Virus record (IMG/VR): IMGVR_UViG_3300036853_000134
Coordinates: 2,936-66,935 of that record
Direction: 5' to 3' (one strand)
Length of the DNA: 64,000 nt
Origin: a virus
Both the position numbers and the translations under genes were made by a program. Of this stretch, positions 28,949 to 64,000 are shown in pieces. The stretch's first letter is position 1. Every line of letters starts with the position of its first letter. The notes beneath the pieces were generated by a model. It saw only the letters and a program-made list of their open reading frames with translations. It ran no database searches and was not told the DNA's origin.

Positions 28949-29281
28949 TCATAGTTGCCAATCTCCTAAATCGTCGGGCCATTGTGGCGACTCTAGCTGA
29001 TCGCGTGGCGTTCCGTTCTCGTCAACGTCAGCGAATCCAGGGGCGGCCTGCAAGGATCGTAATTGCGTAATACTGATTGCGCTGCCTAATTCCTTCAGCG
29101 GTATACGGCAGTACGGGCACAGCTTCCAGTCGTTGCTTATTGCGTAGAATCCACAAACGCAATACGTCATCCCCGTGCCCCTCTCATTTTCCACGTCACC
29201 CACAATATTACCACAACCCTGCGCGCAATCAGCGTCAAAAAGATAATTGAGATAGCGGTGGTGGGTCTCATATTCCCTCAA
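28949..29281 (-). CDS. Zn-ribbon protein
   Basis: CVCG...CPYC. Confidence 0.45.
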   Translation of the reverse strand: MREYETHHRYLNYLFDADCAQGCGNIVGDVENERGTGMTYCVCGFYAISNDWKLCPYCRIPLKELGSAISITQLRSLQAAPGFADVDENGTPRDQLESPQWPDDLGDWQL

Positions 29282-29978
29282 ACAGCGAAGACGTTACGAT
29301 GAAATCAGGTAACGGCTCAAAGTCGAAATATTGCACTTCTAGTCGCTTGGCCGCTATCTCGCAATACTCTTCCGTTAACTCGATTCCAACTGCCGACAAT
29401 CCAAGCATCTTCGCAGCGAGAAGAGTTGTGCCGCTTCCCATAAACGGGTCCAAAACCGATTCACCGGGAAGGCTCACGCGCTTTAAAAGTTTCGACCATT
29501 GACCGATAGGCTTCGGGCACGGATGACCGTTTCTAATTGCCGCCTCGGTGCTCACGAAGCTATCAGGCTGCGAACCGGACCCGCCAAACGGGTCTTTGCC
29601 ATAATAGAAAATCGGTTGCCAGCAAGAAAAGCCCCACGGATTACAGCCATTTGCCGCTGGATAAAAGAAACTACCGCAATGGTCTGGCTTCGGATATGAC
29701 CACATATTCTTGACGCCAGGAGTTATCACCGTTCGTGTGGATTTCTCAAAACATAAGACCAGCACTTCATTCACCAATGAGACCACGGTATCTGCTGAAT
29801 CATCAAAACCAGAATAAGGAACGCTTGCGAGCTTTTGGTTTCGCGCTTTATTACCCAAATCAACGCCGTAAGGCGGGTCGGTTAATACCAAATCCACCTT
29901 TGGCAACCCCGGCAGAATCTCACGGCAATCCGCGTTATATATTGTAATCCCGCCGTGCTGATAATACGGTTCGATCAT
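29268..29978 (-). CDS. DNA N6-adenine/N4-cytosine methyltransferase
   Basis: LTDPPY, HPCPKP, VLDPFMGSGTT. Confidence 0.9.
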   Translation of the reverse strand: MIEPYYQHGGITIYNADCREILPGLPKVDLVLTDPPYGVDLGNKARNQKLASVPYSGFDDSADTVVSLVNEVLVLCFEKSTRTVITPGVKNMWSYPKPDHCGSFFYPAANGCNPWGFSCWQPIFYYGKDPFGGSGSQPDSFVSTEAAIRNGHPCPKPIGQWSKLLKRVSLPGESVLDPFMGSGTTLLAAKMLGLSAVGIELTEEYCEIAAKRLEVQYFDFEPLPDFIVTSSLFEGI

Positions 29979-30035: not shown

Positions 30036-30413
30036 TCAGGCTGGGGCGCTGTGAGTTTCTTTATGCCTTATAAGATATTCTATCGCTTTTGCAAGAGAAG
30101 TTTGATTATCTTTGAAAAATCCCAGCCCCGAATTACACGATGAACATAAAAGAGCACGAACATTGCCGGATTCGTGGCAGTGATCGACAACTAATGGGAT
30201 TGCCGCAAATTCAGCCGCCGGACCATCGCGGAGCACATAATCAAGATCAAATTTCGTCGCGCAAATCGAACAGCACCCATCCTGGGCGAGATACATCACT
30301 TTATATTCCTTAAACGTAATTCCGTATGTTTTCTGTAGTCTCAGGTTCAGAAGTGTATGTTTCGACTTTCCCAGTGATTTAACCTTGTCCCTGTACTTAT
30401 CAACGTTTTCCAT
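30036..30413 (-). CDS. Endonuclease VII family His-Me finger nuclease
   Basis: YGIT...Q-G-CSIC...[28 protein letters not shown]. Confidence 0.9.
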   Translation of the reverse strand: [125 protein letters not shown]

Positions 30414-30858
30414 TCGCTACCTGCTTCCGATTAACCGTCCAAGATTCCGAGGGTTTGACGCACGCATAGCTACCTATTAGCTATGCAAAGTATCCGTCCT
30501 GAGTTCGTCGGGCCTATACTTCGCGCGGGTTCGTTGAGTTAGGGTTACGGCTATTCGTCTTACCGCTCGTTACCGATTTATCGTGCCACCCAACCACAGG
30601 GGAAGTTCGTCCTTAGGCTCTTTGATTCCCGTTGCTCCCAAGCGAAACGTTGCCCGTCTTACAGATGTTTGGTCTGCGGGTCGTTTCCCCTGCCACTGCC
30701 AGAATCGTTATTGTCGCCATAACCTGACTTCCTTCGTATACCGCAGGTGCTACCTTGACACGCCAGGGAATTGTTCAGCGATCCCTGAGTTTGTGAAGAC
30801 AGAACTTTCCCGACTCGTTAGTTGTGCTTAATTGAGTTGTTCGATTCTGATGGTCACG
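30414..30858 (-). ncRNA. Putative large structured ncRNA, copy A
   Basis: No credible ORF; promoter upstream; six motif blocks collinear with 56142-56586; complementary segments. Confidence 0.65.
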
Positions 30859-30864
30859 TTTGCG

Positions 30865-30892
30865 ACTATACGCCGATTTTCCTTGAAGTCAA
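30865..30892 (-). promoter_or_regulatory. Sigma70-type promoter of ncRNA A
   Basis: TTGACT-16-TATAGT. Confidence 0.65.
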
Positions 30893-30954
30893 CCCCTAAT
30901 CTGTGACACAATGCGCCTAGTAACCGTGAGCCCTTCCAGCTATGGTTTATGTTT

Positions 30955-31009
30955 TGCCCGGTACGCATCTTGGTCTGATGGTCACGCACTTTCCAAAAGC
31001 TACCGGGCA
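30955..31009. repeat. Hairpin containing a copy of the ncRNA A 5' 13-mer
   Basis: TGCCCGGTA/TACCGGGCA stem; TCTGATGGTCACG at 30974-30986 is identical to 30846-30858. Confidence 0.75.
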
Positions 31010-31192
31010 TTACTGCGTTTTGGGTCGTTTCTCGCACCTATTCTCTTCCGCGATTACCGCCGCGATCCCCAGCAATCCGTAATTCCGTTTATCCAAAGTC
31101 CAGGCGAGCACCTATCCGCAGTGACTGCATTTCAGGCTATTGGCAGGTGAAAAGTCTTTCGGCCTCGGTCCGATTATCTCAGGATGCGGCAT
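31010..31192 (-). pseudogene. Small Zn-finger gene interrupted by an amber codon
   Basis: MPHPEII...KCSHCG*VLAW...; in-frame TAG at 31112-31114. Confidence 0.4.
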
Positions 31193-31484: not shown

Positions 31485-31513
31485 TTGACACTTGTTCCAA
31501 GCGGGTGTATCTT
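31485..31513 (+). promoter_or_regulatory. Early promoter
   Basis: TTGACA-17-TATCTT. Confidence 0.6.
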
Positions 31514-42568: not shown

Positions 42569-42919
42569 TCATACGGCTAACTCGTATCCATCATCGGTCG
42601 GACGAATAAATTTGACCGGCTTCTTATATTCATCGGCGATCAATATTTCCGCGCTGATACCTTTGGATTCCCGCCAACCATCAATCATCAGTATCCAAAG
42701 TTCGTCACAGCGGGATATGAATTCCGTATCGAACTTGCGCCAGAATCCCCAATCGCCGGGCATCATGAACAAAACGGCTATTGGATGATTATGAACTATG
42801 GGCGAAAAAACGACCGTATCGTTTTGCGTATAGAACGCGACGCATTGAAGGGCGGCATGGTAGCGCGCCTCTCTTATGCCAGGGTCTTTGTGTGAGTATG
42901 GCGACGCAAGATAAATCAC
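42569..42919 (-). CDS. DUF1937 / nucleoside deoxyribosyltransferase-like protein
   Basis: MIYLASPYSH...FSPIVHNH...GWRESKGISAE. Confidence 0.85.
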   Translation of the reverse strand: MIYLASPYSHKDPGIREARYHAALQCVAFYTQNDTVVFSPIVHNHPIAVLFMMPGDWGFWRKFDTEFISRCDELWILMIDGWRESKGISAEILIADEYKKPVKFIRPTDDGYELAV

Positions 42920-45222
42920 GCGGTTTCCTCCATGTTCTCAATTCCGGCAAACAGCCCCTGAGCGCCAGACGCATAAATAGCGCGCTCCATATTCTTGCTG
43001 GCGGCTCTGAAATATTCCGGCTTTAATTCGCAGCCGATACCTTTGCGTCCAAGTAGCAGTGATTGATAAACCTCAGTGCCAATACCAAGAAAAGGGGTCA
43101 GGACTATTTCACCGGGATTTGACCACAATCGCACGCACCTTTCAACGGTCTCTAATTGAAGTGGTGCAATATGTCGCTCATCCTCTTGCCCCCGACCTTC
43201 CGCCGCGCTCAACGTTGCGGTTTCTTTTATGTCGTACCAGACGGGATGCGCCCATTTGATCCATTGTTCGTGACTCACGTCGGGATGGATTGCAACTTCG
43301 TTTTCACCGGGCTTGTGGAATATCAGAATATAATCTGCAAGCGCAGGGCGCAGCCAGCTCGAATCTTTTCGCAACTGGACGAACATCAGGCTTTTCGATT
43401 TCGTTCTAATTGCCTGTGATTGCGGGTTCTTTTGTATACAAATCTCCCCATAATATATAAAGCCTTTGTCGATAAAATGCCTGATTGTTTCCCCGCGAAA
43501 ATCCATCATTCCGATGTAACCGTCCCGACCCTTCATCATTGGGATTTGCGCGACGTGAACACACATTGAGCGGCCGGGCTTGAGCACGCGGAGCATATTT
43601 GACGAGATGAATTGAAAGTGCTCCCAGAATTCCGTCATCGTTTTACAGTTACCCAGATCCCTTTCGGTTGCCGAATAAGTGAATAGCGACCCGAATGGCG
43701 GAGAGTAAACCGAAAGATCAATGGAATTGTCAGGCAGTCCCGCAAGCACTTCGCAGGAATCACCGTGATAGATTGAATAGTCGTCGCCGTGTTTCTGGTT
43801 CATCACCTGAACATCAGCCGCTTTGGTGCCGAGCCATTTTGGTATTTGCATTGGCTGTACCGCGTCGTAATCCAGACGCGTCGTAACTTGTCCAATTTCC
43901 GCTTTCTCAAATTCGGCAACGTGTTTGATTAGCTCTTTCGTCATCGTGTCCGCCTCTCTCTCTTTTCGCAAAACGTTATCAAAAATATCCATTTCAATAT
44001 CGGTCAGCACAATATAAACATTGACCGGCCGTGTTTGACCGAATCGCCACTCGCGCCGGATACCCTGAAAATATTCCTCATAGCTGTCATTCATTCCAAG
44101 GAAGAGCATGCGCGCGGCCGATTGAAAGTTCATCCCCTGCCCGGCAATCTTAGGCTTACTTATCATCGTCTTGACTTCGCCCCGACCGAAGCCCATCAGG
44201 GTTTCCGTTTTACGCTCGATTGAATCACTGCCCTGAACGTTGACCGCATTGCCCAGTGCTTTTGCCAGCGCATCAGCTTCATCGTTCAGTCCGCACCAAA
44301 TCAGCCATTGCTCATCCGGTTCTCGCTGGATTATTTCGACGGCCGCCTTGACCCGCTCGGCGATTGTTGATTTACGGACCTTTGCGCGGTCACCTACACC
44401 ATGCAGACGGGTCGGGAATAATTGCCCATCGGGAACATAAGTTGACGGGACGACAACGGGAATGATGCTCAACTCCGGCAAATCATATCCAGTGTCATCA
44501 TGTCCAATATCCGATGGCTTGAGCAGCGACATTGCCCAGGATGCAAGCCACTTGTGGAACGCATCACGTCCATGTTTTTTCAATCGCCAGCCATCTTCGT
44601 CATGAACAAAAAACGTCGATAGCATTTCCGTTCGTGTCATCACGCCAAGGAATTCGGCATGGTTCGCAATCTCCGAGATATCATTAGGGGCAGGTGTGGC
44701 TGTACAGCAAAGACGCAGCGGAATTACAGAGCAAAGCTTTATCAGTAAAGATCGGCGTTTGCCTTCAAAATGCTTCAGGCAGCTTGATTCGTCCAGAACG
44801 ACCGCGCCGAATTTCGACATATTGAAATGCTCAATCATCTCGTAATTGATAATCGTGATACCGGATTCCGGCGACTCTTCCATCTTGCGCGCATACGTGA
44901 CCTTGATGCCCCACCTCGCGCCTTCTTCAACAGTTTGATGAGCAACCGCAAGCGGAGCGATTACAAGCGAGCGTCGCGCGGCCAGTTCGGCCCAGGACAA
45001 CTGCATAATCGTCTTGCCAAGGCCAGTGGTAGCGAAAAGCGCGGATCGTCCTTTACGCAGTGACCATCGCACTAAATCACGTTGAAACGGAAATAGATTC
45101 TTATTTAAGTCAGCGGCGTCAACCTCAAATCCGGCCGCAGATGCAACGACAGCTTTCGTTGAAAGAAACTCTTGATAAGAACTTGATATTGCGTTAGATT
45201 GCTCAACAGGCATTTGATTCAC
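42916..45222 (-). CDS. SNF2-like helicase fused to an N4C/N6A DNA methyltransferase
   Basis: TGLGKT, VLDESS, TATPAPND, GQGMNFQ, WRFGQ; then SVYSPPF and TPFLGIGTE. Confidence 0.9.
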   Translation of the reverse strand: MNQMPVEQSNAISSSYQEFLSTKAVVASAAGFEVDAADLNKNLFPFQRDLVRWSLRKGRSALFATTGLGKTIMQLSWAELAARRSLVIAPLAVAHQTVEEGARWGIKVTYARKMEESPESGITIINYEMIEHFNMSKFGAVVLDESSCLKHFEGKRRSLLIKLCSVIPLRLCCTATPAPNDISEIANHAEFLGVMTRTEMLSTFFVHDEDGWRLKKHGRDAFHKWLASWAMSLLKPSDIGHDDTGYDLPELSIIPVVVPSTYVPDGQLFPTRLHGVGDRAKVRKSTIAERVKAAVEIIQREPDEQWLIWCGLNDEADALAKALGNAVNVQGSDSIERKTETLMGFGRGEVKTMISKPKIAGQGMNFQSAARMLFLGMNDSYEEYFQGIRREWRFGQTRPVNVYIVLTDIEMDIFDNVLRKEREADTMTKELIKHVAEFEKAEIGQVTTRLDYDAVQPMQIPKWLGTKAADVQVMNQKHGDDYSIYHGDSCEVLAGLPDNSIDLSVYSPPFGSLFTYSATERDLGNCKTMTEFWEHFQFISSNMLRVLKPGRSMCVHVAQIPMMKGRDGYIGMMDFRGETIRHFIDKGFIYYGEICIQKNPQSQAIRTKSKSLMFVQLRKDSSWLRPALADYILIFHKPGENEVAIHPDVSHEQWIKWAHPVWYDIKETATLSAAEGRGQEDERHIAPLQLETVERCVRLWSNPGEIVLTPFLGIGTEVYQSLLLGRKGIGCELKPEYFRAASKNMERAIYASGAQGLFAGIENMEETA

Positions 45223-47257: not shown

Positions 47258-47935
47258 CTATTGCGGCGAATACCTGGCCGCGAATCTTAAAACTGCGTGA
47301 AATTGTCCCTTTTCCAGCATTGCAATCTTCCGCTCTTCACGCTGTCGAAGTTTTTCATACCCGGCGTTTAGGTTGACGAATGTAATCTCTTTCGGTTTCT
47401 TCGACTTTGAGACCTGCTCTTTAAACCGGTCTAGTCGCTTTCGCTTGCCCTTGAGCACGCCAAACTTTAAGCATCTGCGAATCCGTTTCGTTTCTCTCGC
47501 CAGATACCTATCACGCATCCGCTGCCATTCGACTGGATGGATATGGGCGAACCGCTTAAATTGCCAGTCGCGTGCGTTTTGCTCATCTTCGGTTTGAAGC
47601 GTTTTTATGTAGGTCAGCAGCGTAAGAAGCTCATTCTCTCTTTCGATTTCATAAAAGAGAATGCCATGCTTTGAGCATAGATCGCGCTTCTGCTTATCAA
47701 CAGAAAGCTGGCGCTTAAACCCCTCAATATCTTTGTGGAAAAACGGATTGTATTGTGAATGCTGGACGCCTTGAACCTCTACCGCGATTCTTAAATCTTC
47801 GATATATAAGTCAAGTTCCATAGGCTTGCCTAGGTCGGATTTGAGCCAGTCAAAACGGTGATTTTCTTTGACTACCAAACCCTCGATACAATTAAGACGG
47901 CGCGTGGCTTCTTCTTGTAATTTGGAACTTCCCAA
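47258..47935 (-). CDS. PD-(D/E)XK (Vsr/DUF559-like) endonuclease
   Basis: ELDLYIEDLRIAVEVQGVQH...D--KRDLC--HGI. Confidence 0.75.
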   Translation of the reverse strand: MGSSKLQEEATRRLNCIEGLVVKENHRFDWLKSDLGKPMELDLYIEDLRIAVEVQGVQHSQYNPFFHKDIEGFKRQLSVDKQKRDLCSKHGILFYEIERENELLTLLTYIKTLQTEDEQNARDWQFKRFAHIHPVEWQRMRDRYLARETKRIRRCLKFGVLKGKRKRLDRFKEQVSKSKKPKEITFVNLNAGYEKLRQREERKIAMLEKGQFHAVLRFAARYSPQ

Positions 47936-51081: not shown

Positions 51082-51633
51082 TCAGCGCTCCAGTGCCTCC
51101 CTTTTTCCGTTAAACCGCCCCGTCGTCAGGTCGTTTTGCACTTTACCCGTTCTCTTTCGCTCTCTGTGATAATGGCACCTTGAGCAAACCGCTTGCACGT
51201 CCTCGTGGTGAATTGCAGCATACCCAAGGTAGTGGTCGTATTCGTGGCGACGACCACCGGGAGCGTATTGATGCCCGCAGTCCACACAAGGAAGATTATC
51301 CGGATCATCCAATATCCCCGCATGGACAAAATAATTAATACGTCCTCGTGCTTGCTTTCTATCGCCATCACGGGCCGGAACAAAAGCACGGCCTTTTTCT
51401 GGGCGATTCCTTTTTACATATCTGAGACGATGCTTGATATTTCTGCCATCCCGGCAGCCCACCGCAAGGCCATCACTGCGCGATGAGTCTCTTCCGAAAG
51501 ACTCTTTCGGGTGCCAGCGCTTGCAGGCTACACACCATTTATTACCAGCGTCCAGATTGCGCCTATATTGTTGCTCAGTGGTTCCCAGCAGCCTAGCCGC
51601 CGACTTGATCGCCCCGTCGCGTGTTTGCGCCAT
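51082..51633 (-). CDS. HNH endonuclease
   Basis: CVAC...C; CVDCG...HEYDHY...VCSRCH. Confidence 0.8.
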   Translation of the reverse strand: MAQTRDGAIKSAARLLGTTEQQYRRNLDAGNKWCVACKRWHPKESFGRDSSRSDGLAVGCRDGRNIKHRLRYVKRNRPEKGRAFVPARDGDRKQARGRINYFVHAGILDDPDNLPCVDCGHQYAPGGRRHEYDHYLGYAAIHHEDVQAVCSRCHYHRERKRTGKVQNDLTTGRFNGKREALER

Positions 51634-55636: not shown

Positions 55637-55843
55637 TTATTTGCCATTGGACGCCTTCTTTCCGTTCTTTGCGGGCTTGCCGTCAAACGGAGTCCGCTTA
55701 GTCTGTCCGGGCTTCCAAAATCCGTTACTGACCATCCATAACTGAAAACCCTTTTCGAGTATCCAATACATTTTGAGACCGGTTTTCTCAGACATCAACG
55801 ATAACTCTTGATGTGCTTCGTCTGAAATCTTTATCGTTTTCAT
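55637..55843 (-). CDS. Ribbon-helix-helix regulator
   Basis: MKTIKISDEAHQELSLMSEKTG; promoter TTGACA-17-TATTGT directly upstream. Confidence 0.7.
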   Translation of the reverse strand: MKTIKISDEAHQELSLMSEKTGLKMYWILEKGFQLWMVSNGFWKPGQTKRTPFDGKPAKNGKKASNGK

Positions 55844-56000
55844 ATTCAACACAATAAACCCGTCCAGTCTACTTGTCAACACTTATTTCTACTTTTGGAC
55901 ACTAACTGCAAAAATAAATTTATCGCAAAATTATTTCATCCCATCAGGCGCGGGGTTCGCTTGAGCAGGATTGGCGCGAGGCTGGGCGGGTAAAAATCAA

Positions 56001-56051
56001 AACCGCTCAGCTTGTGTTACAAGGACTGGTGGGTTCTTGTGCTGAGCGGTT
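56001..56051. repeat. Hairpin containing a copy of the ncRNA B 5' 11-mer
   Basis: AACCGCTCAGC/GCTGAGCGGTT stem; GTGTTACAAGG at 56014-56024 is identical to 56142-56152. Confidence 0.75.
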
Positions 56052-56105
56052 ATGAATGTCCATGCGCTGGATTAACGGTTTTCATATTAACTGAAAAGAA
56101 TATCG

Positions 56106-56135
56106 TTGACAACCGAAATCGAATCGTCGTATATT
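56106..56135 (+). promoter_or_regulatory. Sigma70-type promoter of ncRNA B
   Basis: TTGACA-18-TATATT. Confidence 0.7.
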
Positions 56136-56141
56136 GACCGC

Positions 56142-56586
56142 GTGTTACAAGGGAATCCAAACAATTCCCAATTTTGAATCCGTAATTCCTTCAACCTGTC
56201 ACTTTGTAAGTGAACGTTTTGAAGCTTTAAATACGGCGTGTCAGTAGAAGGCCACGACCGAGCTTGTCAAAGGGTAAGGCGGGGTCAAGAATCCGACCGA
56301 AGGCGATACGAAGTCGCGGGATTCATCAGCGAGGAGCAATCCAAGCAAATCAATCTTCCCCGGTGTGGAAGTGGCGCGATGAGGTTTAAGCAGTCGGGAG
56401 CGGTCGAATAGTCGCGCAATATAAATCAAAGGACACAACGGCACACCGAACAAGACCGTTGAAACGAAACGACACGCCCGGACTCTGGAAACAATTCCGT
56501 GGGGATGAAACAGAGATTTGAGCCGGGGACGGTTCTTATCTCCCAGTGTCCACGCGTAAGGATGTAATCGGATAGGAGTTGAGTAA
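56142..56586 (+). ncRNA. Putative large structured ncRNA, copy B
   Basis: Collinear motif blocks shared with 30414-30858; GNRA hairpin GAGCCG-GGGA-CGGTTC; long-range complementarity. Confidence 0.65.
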
Positions 56587-57144
56587 GTGGCAGTTTCAAA
56601 AAAAATAATAGAACAGCCGACGATCAAAGAAATGCTGGTTAAGCTATGGTCGGTTGCGGCAGCGCAGCCAGGGTACGATTCCATCGCTTGGCGTCAATTT
56701 CAAGGCGCTCTGGTAAAAGCCGGGATCAAGCCACTTGTCATCACAGACGATGATATTAAGTCTGGTGCGGCTGTTGAATTGCCGATTATCAGAAAGAAGA
56801 TTCGCGGGCTTTGCTATACACACGCAGAGATTAATTTGCCGGAAGTTCAAGCGTTGCGAGCGATGCCGTATAGACAGTATCTTACAACTGCCCACTGGAA
56901 AGCCGTTAGAGAAAGGGCGATTCGTGAGGCAAACGGCGAATGCAGAATGTGCGGCCATTCGAGAAAACTAATCGGGCACCATCAGAACTATGATTTTGTG
57001 GGATGCGAAGAAAGCAAGGATGTGATCGCAATTTGTAATGGCTGTCACGAAAAACATCACGGAAAGAGCAAGCGCAAGAGAAGGCTATTCAATCGGAAAT
57101 CACGCGGCGATTATTACGGACTTACGCGACAGTCTGATATTTGA
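56587..57144 (+). CDS. HNH endonuclease with N-terminal extension
   Basis: YRQYLTTAHWKAVR...CRMCG...HHQNY...G-E---DVIAICNGCHEKHH; SD AGGAG. Confidence 0.85.
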   Translation: MAVSKKIIEQPTIKEMLVKLWSVAAAQPGYDSIAWRQFQGALVKAGIKPLVITDDDIKSGAAVELPIIRKKIRGLCYTHAEINLPEVQALRAMPYRQYLTTAHWKAVRERAIREANGECRMCGHSRKLIGHHQNYDFVGCEESKDVIAICNGCHEKHHGKSKRKRRLFNRKSRGDYYGLTRQSDI

Positions 57145-57175
57145 TTTAACGATTAGCCGCCCACGGGAGGACGCG

Positions 57176-58491
57176 ATGGACGAGAAATCAGCAATAGACC
57201 GTGATAGATATAATATAGGAATTGCAAAAGCGCTGAAGTCTGATTTAGCACAGCAGGCCCGAGAACACTATAGCCGGCTCTCGGACAGCGCCAACGAATT
57301 CAACTCCGTCATTCCTAGCGCGATTAACGTATGGGAATGTATTGACGATGTTCTGATGGGAGAAATTAGCCCTGATATTCCAACTGCGAGCCTTCTTCAG
57401 TCTGTCAACGATGCGCGTCTCCGCTCTATCCGGTCATTGATCGACTACGCACTACGCGTCAAGGTAGCCGCCGCTGTCCAGGCGCAGCGCGAAAAAGACG
57501 CGGGGATCGTGGAAACAATGATGGCAAGCTATGAATATTGTCCTGATAACGACAAGATTACCGTAGGCGGGATGCGCTCACTGATAAAAATGGCCATCGA
57601 AAAGATAAAGGAGCAGCCGTGACTATCCGAGAATTCTTTCGCCGTATCTTTAAACCGTATCCGAGATGCTCCGTGAAAGGCTGCATTCTTCGTCATGGAC
57701 TATTCCAATCAGGCAAGAAGTATCACGTCCATTGCACGACCGACGGCACCATGTTTGTGCGCGGGATCGATATAATTCTGGAAAAGATTAAGGAGCAATC
57801 GTGATAACCCTAAAAGACATTGATTTCAAGGAATTCGACATAGCGGAGGACCGGTTGACGCTGATTAAGACCGGCATCCGCGATTTGCTGCAAGAGGCTC
57901 TGGTTACGGCGCAACGGGCAGAGCGGGAAAGGTGCGCGGGGATTGTACGTAGCTACAAGAATAACGGAATTGATCTGCCGGAAAACCCGCACGATTTCAA
58001 TCATTGCATAGAAGCAGCGGCCCGTGAAATGGAGGACGGAAAGTTATGATTACGATACCGCAAGCTGAACCGGGCGAGATCGAAGTGGGAGAACTCTACC
58101 TAATGACGTGTAAGGAATTTGGGACGCCGAGGCTTGTCACGATAGACAAAAATATAGACGGCAAATACTGGGAACTGATGACTGCGGGCCACGCAAGGCA
58201 TGTCGATATGACGCCTGGTATTAAGCTGTTCGGCCCAATCGAAATCCGGCAGGGGAAGGAAGGTGAGTGATGAGTTTATTTCCAGGCGAAGCCGAAGCGA
58301 TTGAAACTGTTAAGCGGTTAGGCGCTCAGTTTGGCTACGGCAATCTTATCCATCATTTGAAAGACGCGTGGTCAGAGTCGCTACAGAAACAAAACGCCAT
58401 CTTTGATAAACAGACAGCAGATAGAGCGGCGGGCCACGTCTGCGCGTGGTGCAAGGTTGACGGACGAACAGGTAAGAAGGTCAAAGGGTGA
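57176..58491 (+). other. Operon of small hypothetical genes (57176, 57619, 57801, 58046, 58267)
   Basis: Stop/start-overlapping ORFs with SD sequences. Confidence 0.55.
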
Positions 58492-61500: not shown

Positions 61501-64000
61501 GGATCATCATTCGGCGAATTGCCAGCGCTCGCCCAGCGTGCGTACCCGTTCTATCGGCCGCGAAGTCGTTGTTTTCGATATGCTGTTTTACCGCGTCCAA
61601 TTGACCGTTAAGACTAATTTGCGCCTCTTCGTTACCCGATTTCTGCGCCTCGGCGATCTGCTCCTCAAGCGACGCCTGTTCATTTTGCAGACGCATCCGG
61701 TCGTATATGAGCGCAGCGCTTTCAGCATCGGTCAGTACACGCGGCTTTGTGGTCAATTCCTTGACTGACTGTCGATAAGCTTCAGGGTCATTGTCGACGA
61801 TTGCCCGTCCCTGGTCGTAGGATGTACCGAACGATTTACGCGCCAACTTCTCAATTGGCGGCGCTCCACGAGCCTCACGCTCCAAATCTACTTGGCTGTT
61901 TTTAATCCCGGTCACACGCGGCTCAGGCTCTGGTGTTTCGCCTAATTCTTCGTGTGCCTTATTGAACAATTCCCGCAGGTGTGGCTTCACCTCATCGCCA
62001 ATCTCTAAAATCATCTGCCGCGAGAAGTCGGCAAACGTCCTGACGCCGCGCTCAATATGGTAGCCAGCGACGTACAGCCAGTCCTTCAACTCTTCGGTTG
62101 TGATCGGTCCAGAACGGCGCAGATTCTTATCAGGATTCAGGATACGATCAAGCGCTTCGTCCGCACCTTCTTTGGTAAAGAGCGTGTTTTGCTCGCCAGA
62201 TGACGCCGTAGGCAACTCTATCTGCGTATCGAACATGTCGGGAGTCTTCGTGTCTTTTGGCGCAACTGTCGTCTTTTCAACGACATTCTTCCGCCCGGTC
62301 TTCATCCCGATACGCAACAATTCCTTGTCGTTCTCGATCTTCGCCTTGGCTTTATTCTTTTCGGTCTCTAATTTACCAGCGGCTTCGGCTCGGTCGATAT
62401 CTCGCTGAAAGTCTTCTGGCGTTGCCTCCGGACGATTCGCGGCATCGTGAAAATCTTTTAACGTGCCGTAGTGTTCAATCGGCGCTGGCGGTTCGTAGCC
62501 TTTGGGTAGATAAACATATTCCTGATCGCCACCCATTGAGCCTTTGACAGCAATGAAATCTTCTTTTGGAAATGAGAATTCGCGGACGGACTTACCGCCG
62601 TGTGTGTAGTTCCGCGCCTCTCCCGCTGTTCCCGCAACGAAATCACCAGGTCGGAGTTCTGCGCGGCCAGTGCCCCGATAGACCGTCATTGGTTCTTTAC
62701 CGGTCAAGCGCTTCGCGTCGCGGCCAAGTTTCCCTATTTCTTCTTCTGTCGCGTATGGGCTTCGCTGGGAAACACGCTGAAGTTTTTTAAAGATTGCGTC
62801 GGCCACGTCATCAGAGAACTTCTCGCCGGGTTTCACCGACCCGACCTGATTGGCGATAATTCGCTTTGCCGCTTCGTAGCTTTTACCTTTGATCTTGTCG
62901 GCGAGTCTTGTTAGCTCTGATGGGATTTGCTCTGGCGTTGATTCTCGCTCTTGGCTACCGCTCTCCTGAAAATCTGCTGCCTCAATGCCATTCTCTTTAA
63001 TGTCGGTAGCGCGCTGTATGAGGTTGTCGATTGTTTCTGGTGTGAGTCCGTGCCTTGCGCCTTCGCTCCTGAGTTGTTGGGCACCGTCATCGACCGCTGA
63101 GTCGAAGGCTTTGCCAAGCTCACTGTCAGGGTCTTTAAGTTCGGCTTCAACAAGCTTACTTTCGCGTTGAAAAGCTTCAGTGGCGTCTTGTGATTGTTGG
63201 TGTCGCTCATAATCTGCGTCCAATCCTTTATCGATTATATTCTGATCTCGATACTTTGAATAGGTTTTCTTTCCCGCCAGGTCGTCTTCAATTGCGCTCA
63301 TCATGTCGGAAATAGTCGCGTCTTCTTCCAGGAAGTGCGATTCTTTCATCGCCTCAAGCATTCTATCGGGCGATAATCCATTCTTAGTAAACAGCCCAGT
63401 CGTGCCCGATTCCTTTGCGCGCAGTCGATTAAGCTCGCCGCCAAGATCGGCATCAGCTTTGAACCCGCGATTGGTATCGTTCGGTCGTCGCGCAAACTCA
63501 GAGATACTTCTGTCTTCGTGCTCTGCTTTTGGCGGCCTCGGTCGCTTGGTGGTTAGCCCTTGTCGGTTCGCGTCCGATTCGATCTTCGCTCGCGCCTCCG
63601 CTTCCATCGTGCGAGCTTCCTGCAACTTGCCCTTTGCCACAGTCAGGTCCATTCGAATTGAGCCTTTATTGTCGCGTGCGGTAGCGTTGCTCAGGCGGGT
63701 TTGCAGTTTATCGACTTGCTTTTTCGCAAGTTCAATCGCTTGCTTTGCGCCCGCCAGCATTCCATGGCCGGGAGAATTGACGGATTTAGGATTGACCAGC
63801 TTTAGCGGTGCATCTGGATCGACAGGTTTTCTGCTCCTTGACGTACCGGATTCTGGCTGTTGCAATTCAGGGTGCTCTCGCAGGACTTCTGGCGGTATCT
63901 CTTTGCCTTCCTTGATTGCCTGCGTAATACCCTGCTGTGCCGCCATCTGTGCGGGGCTTAACTTTTCAGACGGCCTGCGCAGCGGTTCTGTCTTGCGCGC
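58562..64000 (-). CDS. Giant internal virion / large polyvalent protein (N-terminus beyond the window)
   Basis: Frame is open to 64000 (over 1800 aa). ART-like VYRG...PGDFV...EYVY segment, long coiled coils, and a C-terminal helical/hydrophobic domain (LFSPRY, STDPDDPDFLK). Confidence 0.8.
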   Translation of the reverse strand, partial: ARKTEPLRRPSEKLSPAQMAAQQGITQAIKEGKEIPPEVLREHPELQQPESGTSRSRKPVDPDAPLKLVNPKSVNSPGHGMLAGAKQAIELAKKQVDKLQTRLSNATARDNKGSIRMDLTVAKGKLQEARTMEAEARAKIESDANRQGLTTKRPRPPKAEHEDRSISEFARRPNDTNRGFKADADLGGELNRLRAKESGTTGLFTKNGLSPDRMLEAMKESHFLEEDATISDMMSAIEDDLAGKKTYSKYRDQNIIDKGLDADYERHQQSQDATEAFQRESKLVEAELKDPDSELGKAFDSAVDDGAQQLRSEGARHGLTPETIDNLIQRATDIKENGIEAADFQESGSQERESTPEQIPSELTRLADKIKGKSYEAAKRIIANQVGSVKPGEKFSDDVADAIFKKLQRVSQRSPYATEEEIGKLGRDAKRLTGKEPMTVYRGTGRAELRPGDFVAGTAGEARNYTHGGKSVREFSFPKEDFIAVKGSMGGDQEYVYLPKGYEPPAPIEHYGTLKDFHDAANRPEATPEDFQRDIDRAEAAGKLETEKNKAKAKIENDKELLRIGMKTGRKNVVEKTTVAPKDTKTPDMFDTQIELPTASSGEQNTLFTKEGADEALDRILNPDKNLRRSGPITTEELKDWLYVAGYHIERGVRTFADFSRQMILEIGDEVKPHLRELFNKAHEELGETPEPEPRVTGIKNSQVDLEREARGAPPIEKLARKSFGTSYDQGRAIVDNDPEAYRQSVKELTTKPRVLTDAESAALIYDRMRLQNEQASLEEQIAEAQKSGNEEAQISLNGQLDAVKQHIENNDFAADRTGTHAGRALAIRRMMIREDYSLDNLMRRAKIANDGQPVPEKTAVRLKELSETIKRTSEDLAKQDEIDAQRAADRAVKKIDDEVKTAARRTRRTVTKAKLDNDFDSLKAEFKNLFKSKEPPSKGLGGPEAGAVVGLTLPAEAVTLLTKMARNRIEAGMVKAVDIVDSIYSDVKDALPDGFTYRDIRDAISGSGKTSRPSKDAIDTELRKIKRELRDVSAEEDIVAGKRPPRSGYQPDPPTAEERARTQRLNQLKREHGIKIEGSERSPEQQQKSALDGVKTRLKNAIQDLDRQIKTGEKPPQRTPVPLDAEAKALQAERDSLRATLDAINGPRRMTDAQRIEMAQRSLEKSITEYDRRISDKDFTAKAKADPVTNLQLEALKQRRDAAKKTYQALKDADPAAIAKKQASQNEALRKRLVKRQAELEEMLRTGNFEKTPKAKLPLTAENVKLQNENRAATREVQQIIKRMNEGIGAKVLRAASDVINAPKSLLTSIDISAGGRQGLVQVFAHPKIAAEAFIKQFQAMSEVGQTRVYDEIQKMPFFGEAKKAGLYFAGDPLQSAGREEAFLSKLPEKIPYIGRLYAGSERAYSAFLDWQRIRAYQVESQLMKSDKAGGYTPEKNPEAFQQLAKFINRTTGRGDLGEGWYPHEAKVATGVANLFLFSPRYMASRFQMLNGLASKNPAMRRIAGRTLGLYYGGVVTALGLAAAAGLKVSTDPDDPDFLKVRAGNTSYDLTRGQNQDMRVAFQLVRGLSNNARGIENTQAQQPGNVALHYLRGKTAPALGTAIDYKMGSNIVGDKFTWKGAAANMVAPMVGRDLYEGYKDSGAPGFVKTLPTVIGIGTQTYKRTPQEIRDVQSLATKFKQANRIPMDTFSGGASELTQLKRSLETADLPTAESEIKRLLGELRGTKPGIDDRLEARTKIKKAIDEWAGFHAGTEKAEYADAGFRPLFTGSATNEAKFKQSLTPAQRETYGRAVTARKEAWQRFTKLLQGTH

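Follow-up and report, generated by a model that had tools for sequence, protein, structure and literature searches.

Two loci of a phage genome, A and B, raise the question of why the sequence at the predicted start of a transcript should recur exactly, and at the same distance, upstream of its own promoter, and why the two words repeated in this way should be unrelated to each other. The loci are part of a window of 64,000 nucleotides, bases 2936-66935 of a 66,935-bp IMG/VR record that is rated complete, and belong to a soil phage, an orphan known from one genome. An earlier sequence-only reading of the window had pointed out the duplicated words and had offered three explanations for them, namely a 5' guide as in IscB, an antisense hairpin RNA like those of ColE1 or P1, and paired operators.

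Genome setting of the two loci

The record bears a 127-bp terminal repeat, which points to an overlap in the assembly more than to a physical terminus because it is situated inside the 5' end of a 1,794-aa ORF that runs off the end of the window. According to PHROGs and Pfam, the late module occupies the minus strand from 30413 down to 1 and comprises, in this order, genes for an EndoVII-type nuclease, an N6/N4 DNA methylase, a 110-aa ORF, TerS, TerL and the structural proteins. The early/replication module is located on the same strand from 55843 down to about 39400 and contains genes for a RecT-like protein, a resolvase and a helicase-methylase as well as two further HNH genes, and a short operon on the plus strand (56587-58491) begins with an HNH gene. 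The phage has at least four genes of the HNH/EndoVII type, which are typical mobile cargo. No match to an integrase or transposase was obtained with 50 window-encoded protein queries (49 distinct ORFs) in PHROGs or Pfam. Locus A is the largest non-coding region and heads the HNH-TerS-TerL module, 1.6 kb upstream of TerS, and locus B is situated 25 kb away from the packaging genes. GANTC methylation sites occur without bias (338 compared with 326 ± 18 expected).

Start-site words and their upstream copies

At both loci, the word follows the near-consensus -10 box of a strong match to the sigma-70 promoter consensus, and a third promoter, P_left, carries a repeat of the same kind:

30865..30892, minus strand: promoter P_A, TTGACT-16-TATAGT, 10 of 12 consensus positions
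30846..30858, minus strand: A word CGTGACCATCAGA, downstream copy, starting 7 nt past the -10 box; predicted 5' end of leader A
30974..30986, minus strand: A word, upstream copy at a distance of 128 nt, near the apex of hairpin A
56106..56135, plus strand: promoter P_B, TTGACA-18-TATATT, 11 of 12 consensus positions
56142..56152, plus strand: B word GTGTTACAAGG, downstream copy, starting 7 nt past the -10 box
56014..56024, plus strand: B word, upstream copy, 128 nt upstream, inside hairpin B
55851..55879, minus strand: promoter P_left, TTGACA-17-TATTGT, 10 of 12 consensus positions; divergent, beside locus B
55836..55846, minus strand: third word AATATGAAAAC, at the P_left start site and including the start codon
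56078..56088, minus strand: third word, upstream copy, 242 nt upstream, overlapping the -10 box of the candidate sRNA_B promoter

These positions agree with the sequence-only reading in both words, both promoters, the 7-nt offset and the identical copy spacing of 128 nt in A and B. Its picture of a constant architecture around a variable word also holds, and extends to P_left. The repeats are direct and exact (13 of 13 nt in A, 11 of 11 nt in B) and have sharp edges with unrelated flanks, and the A and B words show no relation to each other. Within the window, CGTGACCATCAGA is present in these two exact copies only, and GTGTTACAAGG has two copies only even if one mismatch is permitted. A reverse-complement copy of either word was not found in the window within the mismatches permitted in the search, and complementarity to the words inside the leaders is limited to runs of 7-8 bp, which is chance level. 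Symmetry within the words amounts to arms of 3 bp at most. Loci A and B have in common a register of 6 nt between the -10 box and the word, and their likeness near the promoter consists of AATCGnCGTATAnT over the -10 box, six bases, the variable word and then GAATC at +12..+16. The geometry of the promoters suggests that the word forms the 5' end of the RNA.

P_A, P_B and P_left are three of the four best promoter matches noted in the window (10, 11 and 10 of 12), and the fourth, at 31485 (10 of 12), is without such a repeat. P_left stands in front of a 68-aa gene with almost no leader (ATG at 55843), which is followed by the RecT/replication operon. The product of this first gene begins with MKTIKISDEAHQELL, a start that we take to be RHH-like, and has no match in Pfam or PHROGs. 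The upstream copy of the third word lies outside any strong hairpin. A tandem arrangement, with the upstream copy serving as a further start site, was rejected, as no -10-like hexamer was seen before the upstream copies in A or B.

Occurrence of the repeats beyond chance

In the window, direct repeats of at least 10 nt at a spacing of 20-400 nt number 39, compared with 22 ± 5 expected, and spacings other than 128 nt recur among them as well; therefore, the common 128-nt spacing means little by itself. A promoter-word repeat was defined as a word of at least 11 nt that starts 0-9 nt after a -10 box and recurs no more than 300 nt upstream. Such repeats accompany 3 of the 69 promoter-like sites in the 66.9-kb genome, whereas 60 simulated genomes (Markov-1) yielded a mean of 0.033 and a maximum of 1, so that the real count exceeds the simulation about 100-fold. 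A comparison set of 95 other phage and metagenome loci (523 kb, 745 promoter-like sites) gave three cases of at least 11 nt, of which one is low-complexity, one an iteron array and one a 12-mer. The combination of promoter, word and upstream copy is real and non-random.

A pattern of this kind could have been left by the insertion or exchange of a promoter/hairpin cassette, in which case the repeats would be scars, such as microhomology or recombination joints, with no present regulatory role. The phage carries at least four HNH/EndoVII-type genes, and of the 39 short direct repeats in the window, 6 fall in the regulatory regions. The order of a stem-loop and then a sigma-70-type promoter is also found in the PeSLs, composite terminator-promoter cassettes before variable genes of T4-like phages (PMC4122927). 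However, PeSLs are a conserved repeated sequence serving homologous recombination, whereas A and B are not alignable and lack any similarity of recombination grade, and PMC4122927 does not describe a duplicated start-site word for them. A register common to two loci of unrelated sequence (7 nt, 128 nt, GAATC at +12..+16) is not what scars would be expected to leave, and the roughly 100-fold excess over simulation also argues against them. Terminal inverted repeats are lacking in the stretches that separate the copies, which again speaks against scars, and on the same ground a transposon or MITE with target-site duplication was rejected. We consider it unlikely that the repeats are mere traces of insertion.

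The words may also mark a site of DNA transaction, either as pac/cos boxes for terminase or nuclease or as a transcription-primed replication origin. In some phages, HNH genes located beside the terminase genes assist cos cleavage, and locus A, being the largest non-coding region at the head of the HNH-TerS-TerL module, would be suitably placed. Yet locus B is of like architecture at 25 kb from the packaging genes, and each word has two copies only, with no iteron-like arrays. A role in packaging or origin function is very unlikely on these grounds.

Leaders and adjacent nuclease genes

The A and B words are each followed by a long non-coding stretch that ends at a nuclease gene:

30414..30858, minus strand: leader A, 445 nt, without convincing ORF, Rfam match or unusual folding
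30036..30413, minus strand: Endonuclease VII-type gene, 125 aa, first gene of the late operon
56142..56586, plus strand: leader B, 445 nt, without convincing ORF
56587..57144, plus strand: HNH endonuclease gene, 185 aa, with an orphan N-terminal stretch of 80 aa and a widespread C-terminal HNH domain

From the start of the word to the position before the first plausible start codon, both loci measure 445 nt. The stretches are treated here as long 5' leaders of nuclease-first operons and not as stand-alone RNAs. Rfam gave no match across the whole window at gathering thresholds, and for both loci at E up to 10 only chance matches of the snoRNA type were obtained (E 0.76 and 5.7). The MFE z-scores of the whole leaders are +0.52 and -0.76, and in 100-nt windows z never falls below -2.0; a large structured RNA was rejected on these ordinary values. 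We likewise rejected A and B as homologous RNAs, as the best blastn match between them has an E value of 0.3 and the ungapped identity is 27.7%. Their global alignment reaches z 2.4 compared with shuffles and 0.9 compared with genomic pieces, the pairing profiles correlate at r 0.13, and the internal motifs common to both leaders, CTTCCCCnGTG..GTGGCnCGAT and AACAATTCC, are out of register. Neither leader contains a hydrophobic small ORF on the sense strand. Leader B has a small terminator-like hairpin at 56151-56169 (+10..+28) followed by AAUUUUGAAU, which is weak and early and is overlapped by the B word by two bases; no terminator-like site was seen in leader A.

The sequence-only reading had considered the word a possible 5' guide that matches a DNA site near its own promoter. 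Such a guide would bring the neighbouring HNH/EndoVII nuclease, or the transcript itself as a tether, to the complementary DNA strand of the upstream copy, as in IscB with its omega-RNA. The arrangement does resemble the IscB/omega-RNA (HEARO) systems in its 5' guide logic, as the match is at the 5' end, different words share one layout and an HNH gene is located directly behind each long non-coding leader. In addition, the HNH domain of the B protein weakly matches the HNH domain of an IscB structure (9k2z, E 0.005). However, IscB proteins have about 400-500 aa, with a split RuvC, an HNH and an N-terminal PLMP domain, whereas the proteins encoded here have 125 and 185 aa, lack RuvC and give no match to the IscB N-terminal family in Pfam. 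The 125-aa protein consists of the Endonuclease_7 domain alone (Pfam), and the 185-aa protein is assigned to HNH by PHROGs and a weak PDB match, with no match in Pfam. Its HNH domain belongs to a family with 15,751 representatives at E up to 0.001 and varied N-termini, and the weak IscB match reflects the generic HNH fold. Even at E 10, Rfam yielded no HEARO match and nothing else beyond the chance matches mentioned above, and the leaders have no structure signal and are unlike each other. The match between word and copy is just 11-13 nt long, its target would be the phage's own DNA, and the third word precedes a gene that does not encode a nuclease. With the 50 protein queries, no transposase (TnpA) that would suggest an IS200/IS605 context was matched, and the surrounding genes encode MTase, TerS, TerL and RecT as well as small ORFs. 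The IscB-like guide is unsupported, with protein size, domains, RNA family and leader folding all against it, and we regard it as hardly credible.

A programmable address unrelated to IscB/TnpB is also conceivable, in which the 5' end of the nascent leader would be matched to the hairpin-presented copy and read by the nuclease or the transcription complex, with the RNA acting on a DNA or RNA hairpin or guiding a nick or tether. Taken together with a milder variant, in which three RNA words would switch the early-left, early-right and late operons, this appears highly improbable.

Upstream hairpins and candidate divergent RNAs

The upstream copies of the A and B words are held in hairpins, and promoter-like sites on the opposite strand may read through them:

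30955..31009, no strand assigned: hairpin A, arms 30955-30963 and 31001-31009, 9 nt, 100% complementary, 37 nt apart
55997..56055, no strand assigned: hairpin B, arms 55997-56011 and 56041-56055, 15 nt, 93% complementary, 29 nt apart
30883..30912, plus strand: candidate divergent promoter A, TTGAAG-18-(TG)a-CACAAT, 8 of 12 with an extended -10, overlapping the P_A -35 box
56084..56112, minus strand: candidate divergent promoter B, TTGTCA-17-TAATAT, 9 of 12, with a -35 region common with P_B
30919..31025, plus strand: putative antisense sRNA_A, about 105 nt, predicted to comprise a 5' small hairpin, hairpin A carrying UCUGAUGGUCACG and a weak U-tract
55990..56077, minus strand: putative antisense sRNA_B, about 85 nt, predicted to comprise a 5' small hairpin, hairpin B carrying CCUUGUAACAC and a U-tract

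The hairpins that had been described around the upstream copies were confirmed, as their arms could be located and both fold far better than shuffled sequences, with z -3.9 and -4.0 on the two strands for hairpin A, and -6.5 on the plus and -8.2 on the minus strand for hairpin B. In sliding windows, they are the sole segments of either locus that fold significantly better than shuffles (z -2.9 for hairpin A, -4.0 to -5.3 for hairpin B). The U-tract that had been noted on the minus strand after hairpin B is present as UUUUGAUUUUUAC and is a good one; on the plus strand, hairpin A is followed by UUACUGCGUUUU, in which the U-tract is weak and interrupted. A consensus terminator scan lists neither hairpin because their loops exceed 8 nt. 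The arms of the two hairpins are out of register with each other. Extrusion from duplex DNA is unlikely for a hairpin with arms of 9-15 bp and an interior of 29-37 nt; therefore, the upstream hairpins are more plausibly RNA elements and hence must be transcribed.

For hairpin B, no sigma-70-like promoter with a normal spacer was found that would read it in the sense direction (the best being TTGGCG-15-AAAAAT), and the genes upstream of it point away. The candidate on the opposite strand is the sole one on the minus strand in 56000-56200, and its counterpart at locus A is the sole one on the plus strand in 30800-31010. Both overlap the main -35 box in back-to-back orientation, with the word complement following 60-62 nt further on, and the corresponding start points would be 62-65 bp upstream of the main start, predicting transcripts without overlap. 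A scan of the 5' parts of the leaders revealed no antisense promoter. The 5' small hairpins of the two putative sRNAs have the motif CCAGCnnAUGG in common. In predicted sRNA_A, UCUGAUGGUCACG has a mean unpaired probability of 0.74, and in predicted sRNA_B the value for CCUUGUAACAC is 0.55, with 5 nt fully open and the remainder in the inner stem. The accessibility of the words in the first 60 nt of the leaders is 0.69 (A) and 0.71 (B), and perfect word duplexes would have -22.2 kcal/mol (A) and -15.2 kcal/mol (B).

From the observed repeats, their geometry and non-randomness and the stability of the hairpins, we infer a possible arrangement in which both transcription start sites, the short RNA, its pairing and the consequence of pairing are predictions. 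Each locus would constitute a pair of back-to-back divergent promoters. The strong promoter would produce the 445-nt leader mRNA for the nuclease gene and, in A, for the whole late/terminase operon as well, and the weaker promoter on the opposite strand would give rise to a short RNA of about 85-105 nt ending at the hairpin. The upstream copy of the word would thereby be transcribed from the opposite strand, so that the hairpin of the short RNA would present, towards its top, an exact complement to the leader's first 11-13 nt, and the short RNA may pair with the free 5' end of the leader. Pairing may then control the fate of the leader, that is, its stability, early termination or downstream translation, and each word would give its own pair its specificity. 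At locus B, pairing could tip early termination because the word overlaps the small terminator-like hairpin by two bases.

A divergent antisense RNA that pairs with the leader 5' end is the best reading of the loci, although we advance it tentatively. Exact, sharply bounded repeats with unrelated words suit base-pairing better than protein sites, and the direct orientation of the repeats counts in its favor because a divergently transcribed complement requires direct copies. The presence of one promoter-like antisense site per locus, at the main -35 box, is also consistent with this reading, and so are the unusual folding of the upstream hairpins, the lack of a sense promoter for hairpin B, the U-tract on its antisense strand and the predicted accessibility of word and complement. 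The phage has no paralogous DNA-binding proteins that might read different words at equal positions. On the other hand, A has a weak antisense promoter (8 of 12) and an interrupted U-tract, 5-6 nt of the B complement are predicted to be buried in the inner stem, and the blocks of 11-13 nt are shorter than the 18-35 nt of known pairs. An exact spacing of 128 nt is needless for an RNA and would rather be expected from DNA geometry. For the third repeat (P_left, 242 nt), neither an antisense promoter nor a terminator is plausible, and a terminator-like site is missing in leader A and is weak and early in leader B.

Comparison with known antisense systems

The proposed layout resembles timR/timP, istR-1/tisB, ohsC/shoB, orz/zor and agrB/dinQ, for which an upstream complementary block on the opposite strand and non-overlapping genes are described (PMC7667032). 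In timP/timR and relatives, the block complementary to the 5' UTR is encoded upstream on the other strand, with an intrinsic terminator behind it (PMC7667032). With word copies of 13 and 11 nt placed 128 nt before the predicted +1, the phage loci have such an upstream opposite-strand block in common with the divergent pairs. Here, however, the target would be a 445-nt leader of a nuclease or late operon without a small hydrophobic toxin ORF, and the block has 11-13 nt instead of at least 18 nt. Its position also differs: on the target it would form the very first nucleotides, and on the putative sRNA it would be part of the terminal hairpin, not of the 5' end.

In the case of IS10, the pairing of RNA-OUT with RNA-IN nucleates between the hairpin loop and the 5' end, and the proposed RNAs would be similar in that the antisense partner is a small, stable stem-loop that binds its target at the very beginning of the transcript. 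RNA-OUT has a length of 69 nt and a complementarity of 35 nt (PMC5006887). The IS10 promoters face each other and produce overlapping RNAs (cis-antisense), whereas the transcripts predicted here are divergent and depend on a separate duplicated word. ColE1 (RNA I/RNA II), P1 (c4) and P4 (CI RNA) likewise use antisense RNAs with hairpins to regulate a long leader or primer RNA, and their specificity varies between relatives. ColE1 is cis-overlapping, and the antisense RNAs of P1 and P4 are processed from a transcript shared with their targets. In contrast to ColE1, no overlap is predicted here, with the candidate starts 62-65 bp upstream of the main start, and P1 c4 and P4 CI RNA differ in that they need complementary copies on the same strand, whereas the copies found here are direct repeats. 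Among the three explanations offered by the sequence-only reading, the antisense hairpin RNA fits best, but not in the ColE1- or P1 c4-like layout that it had named, because the candidate transcripts do not overlap and no complementary same-strand copy exists.

Protein-binding sites as an alternative

Instead of pairing as RNA, the words may be bound by protein, one over the start point and the second upstream as a looped or auxiliary operator. In one version, the first gene product (HNH, EndoVII or the RHH-like 68-aa protein) would repress its own promoter as I-TevI does. The position over +1 is the classic one for a repressor and would fit, and the identical 128-nt spacing and -10-to-word register, together with hairpin arms that are out of register, point to DNA geometry. 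N-terminal HTH, winged-helix or replisome-organiser matches were found in 3 of 10 scanned relatives of the B nuclease, all below the Pfam cut-off, and a 64-aa HTH-like protein (weak matches) is encoded just upstream of A. The first gene of P_left, which has no Pfam or PHROGs match and which we presume to be RHH-like, would also be in line with protein binding. The homing endonuclease I-TevI represses its own promoter via an operator that resembles its homing site (PMC2988022). The likeness consists in a nuclease gene behind its own promoter and in a promoter-overlapping, nuclease-specific sequence that is also present at a second place (PMC2988022). In T4, the two I-TevI sites are similar and not identical (15 of 20) and lack a hairpin, and one of them, the homing site, belongs to another allele.

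What argues against protein sites is, first of all, the form of the repeats, since typical sets of operators do not consist of perfect copies with sharp edges and hardly any palindromic symmetry. Furthermore, three unrelated words would need three specific proteins, and paralogous regulators are absent; the EndoVII protein, at 125 aa, is too small to accommodate a DNA-binding domain besides its nuclease domain. Protein sites would also leave without a function both the stable hairpin that encloses the upstream copy and the U-tract on one of its strands. In our view, operator binding is a strong competitor, somewhat less likely than RNA pairing.

Possible role in operon control

Most likely, the feature represents a promoter-specific addressing of the 5' start region of the main operons by antisense RNA or possibly by protein. 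As such, it would extend known antisense/operator control and does not point to a further class of guide RNA. If the short divergent RNAs are indeed made, the late/packaging and nuclease operons of this one orphan genome would be timed by promoter-specific antisense words, which would arise by duplication and not by overlapping transcription. This would provide a compact control module that could be re-addressed by altering 11-13 nt in two places. Late control in phages is usually ascribed to activators, sigma factors or antiterminators, and an RNA word at the extreme 5' end of a late leader would be an unusual solution. If the words are protein sites, the exact copies at +1 and -128 would define the recognition sequences of two uncharacterised phage nucleases.

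Relatives of the loci and co-variation of the words

Neither locus A nor locus B had a blastn match in the phage database. Relatives of the EndoVII protein were recovered at 80 loci with up to 49% identity, the best full-length match being 48%, and none of 15 of these loci, chosen by eye from about 30 with upstream gaps of at least 300 nt, had an analogous repeat. The B HNH protein had no relatives in IMG/VR and one 78% homologue among 5.8 billion proteins, which is located on a contig of 1,382 nt. TerL relatives were found at 3 IMG/VR and 7 metagenome loci and at none in genomes, all with up to 52% identity; the best of them are 45-52% identical and have a higher G+C content. A promoter-plus-repeat scan of the 3 IMG/VR and 7 metagenome TerL loci gave no positive, and none of 5 mapped TerL loci (L085, L089-L092) has a long leader before TerS/TerL. 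The RecT search led to one distant locus. When IMG/VR was scanned for CTTCCCCNGTG..GTGGCNCGAT, two matches appeared, both inside terminase-like coding sequence, and a scan for the common promoter motif AATCGNCGTATANT-N16-18-GAATCNAA had none. Two soil DNA runs, one of them possibly the source, carry the phage with identical sequence and hence no variation, and no RNA run was listed as containing it. Within the genome itself, co-variation is seen: three different words are each matched exactly by their own upstream copy.

Length and shared motifs of the leaders

At loci A and B, a word just 3' of the promoter -10 box has an exact copy 128 nt upstream inside a hairpin. Counted from the first base of this word, leader A (30414-30858, minus, before the EndoVII gene) and leader B (56142-56586, plus, before the HNH gene) both extend for exactly 445 nt until a start codon first becomes possible, yet they cannot be aligned and their ungapped identity is 27.7%. 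The motif AACAATTCC was found in five copies in the window, as compared to 0.75 expected, and three of these fall within the two leaders in sense orientation, where every copy makes up the 3' arm of a small hairpin of the GGAA/UUCC type.

30767-30775, minus, AACAATTCC in leader A
56160-56168, plus, AACAATTCC in leader B
56490-56498, plus, AACAATTCC in leader B
61965-61973, plus, AACAATTCC
62316-62324, plus, AACAATTCC

In addition, the 13-mer AATCCGTAATTCC occurs exactly twice, at 56177-56189 (plus; +36 to +48 of leader B) and at 31074-31086, upstream of the word-bearing hairpin A and antisense relative to the leader A transcript.

Both -10 boxes are spanned by AATCGnCGTATAnT, and GAATC occupies +12 to +16 in either leader (30843-30847, minus; 56153-56157, plus). 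GAATC matches GANTC, a CcrM-type site, and two N6/N4 methylases are encoded by the same phage; a genome-wide bias in GANTC was not observed (338 sites versus 326 +/- 18 expected). The phage carries two DNA methylase domains and four nuclease genes of the HNH/EndoVII type.

29268-29978, DNA methylase domain
42916-45222, DNA methylase domain in the C-terminal half
30036-30413, 47258-47935, 51082-51633 and 56587-57144, HNH/EndoVII-type nuclease genes

Features specific to each locus

Within leader A, a 35-aa ORF (MATITILAVAG...; 30613-30720, minus) is preceded by a good Shine-Dalgarno-like GAAGGAAG 7-9 nt 5' of its ATG and may encode a small leader peptide. The 10-mer GGGTCGTTTC is present at 30678-30687 (plus), corresponding to +172 to +181 of leader A on the minus strand, and again at 31022-31031 (plus), 13 nt beyond hairpin A. 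It would be a second leader-complementary block if sRNA_A, a putative short antisense RNA, extends past this hairpin, although at 10 nt a chance match is possible.

Leader B contains an early terminator-like hairpin, GGGAAUCCAAACAAUUCCC (56151-56169, plus), followed by AAUUUUGAAU (together +10 to +38), which overlaps the final two bases of the B word. Near locus B, a third promoter, P_left, is a strong match (10 of 12 positions; 55836-55879, minus, including its start-site word) and drives a near-leaderless gene of 68 aa, the product of which is RHH-like in appearance; no family match was obtained for this protein. The start-site word, AATATGAAAAC, includes the ATG and recurs 242 nt upstream (56078-56088, minus). 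This copy overlaps with the -10 box of a promoter candidate for sRNA_B, the putative antisense RNA at this locus, and opens an 11-codon ORF that stops at the foot of hairpin B. The A-rich tract preceding hairpin B pairs with this upstream copy in a second inverted repeat (55990-56005 with 56076-56091; 16 nt, 81% complementary), which competes with hairpin B at its foot and could thus represent an alternative structure.

Comparison locus and genome ends

In an unrelated IMG/VR contig (L053, 1260-1500, minus), an iteron-like (C)GGAACGGTTC repeat array surrounds a promoter-like site. This array looks like a replication origin rather than another instance of the A/B architecture.

A direct terminal repeat of 127 bp, with one copy at window 63874-64000 and the other in the first 127 bases of the record, falls on the 5' end of a 1,794-aa ORF. 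As assemblers commonly use a k-mer length of 127, the repeat is probably the sign of a circular assembly and not of real ends.
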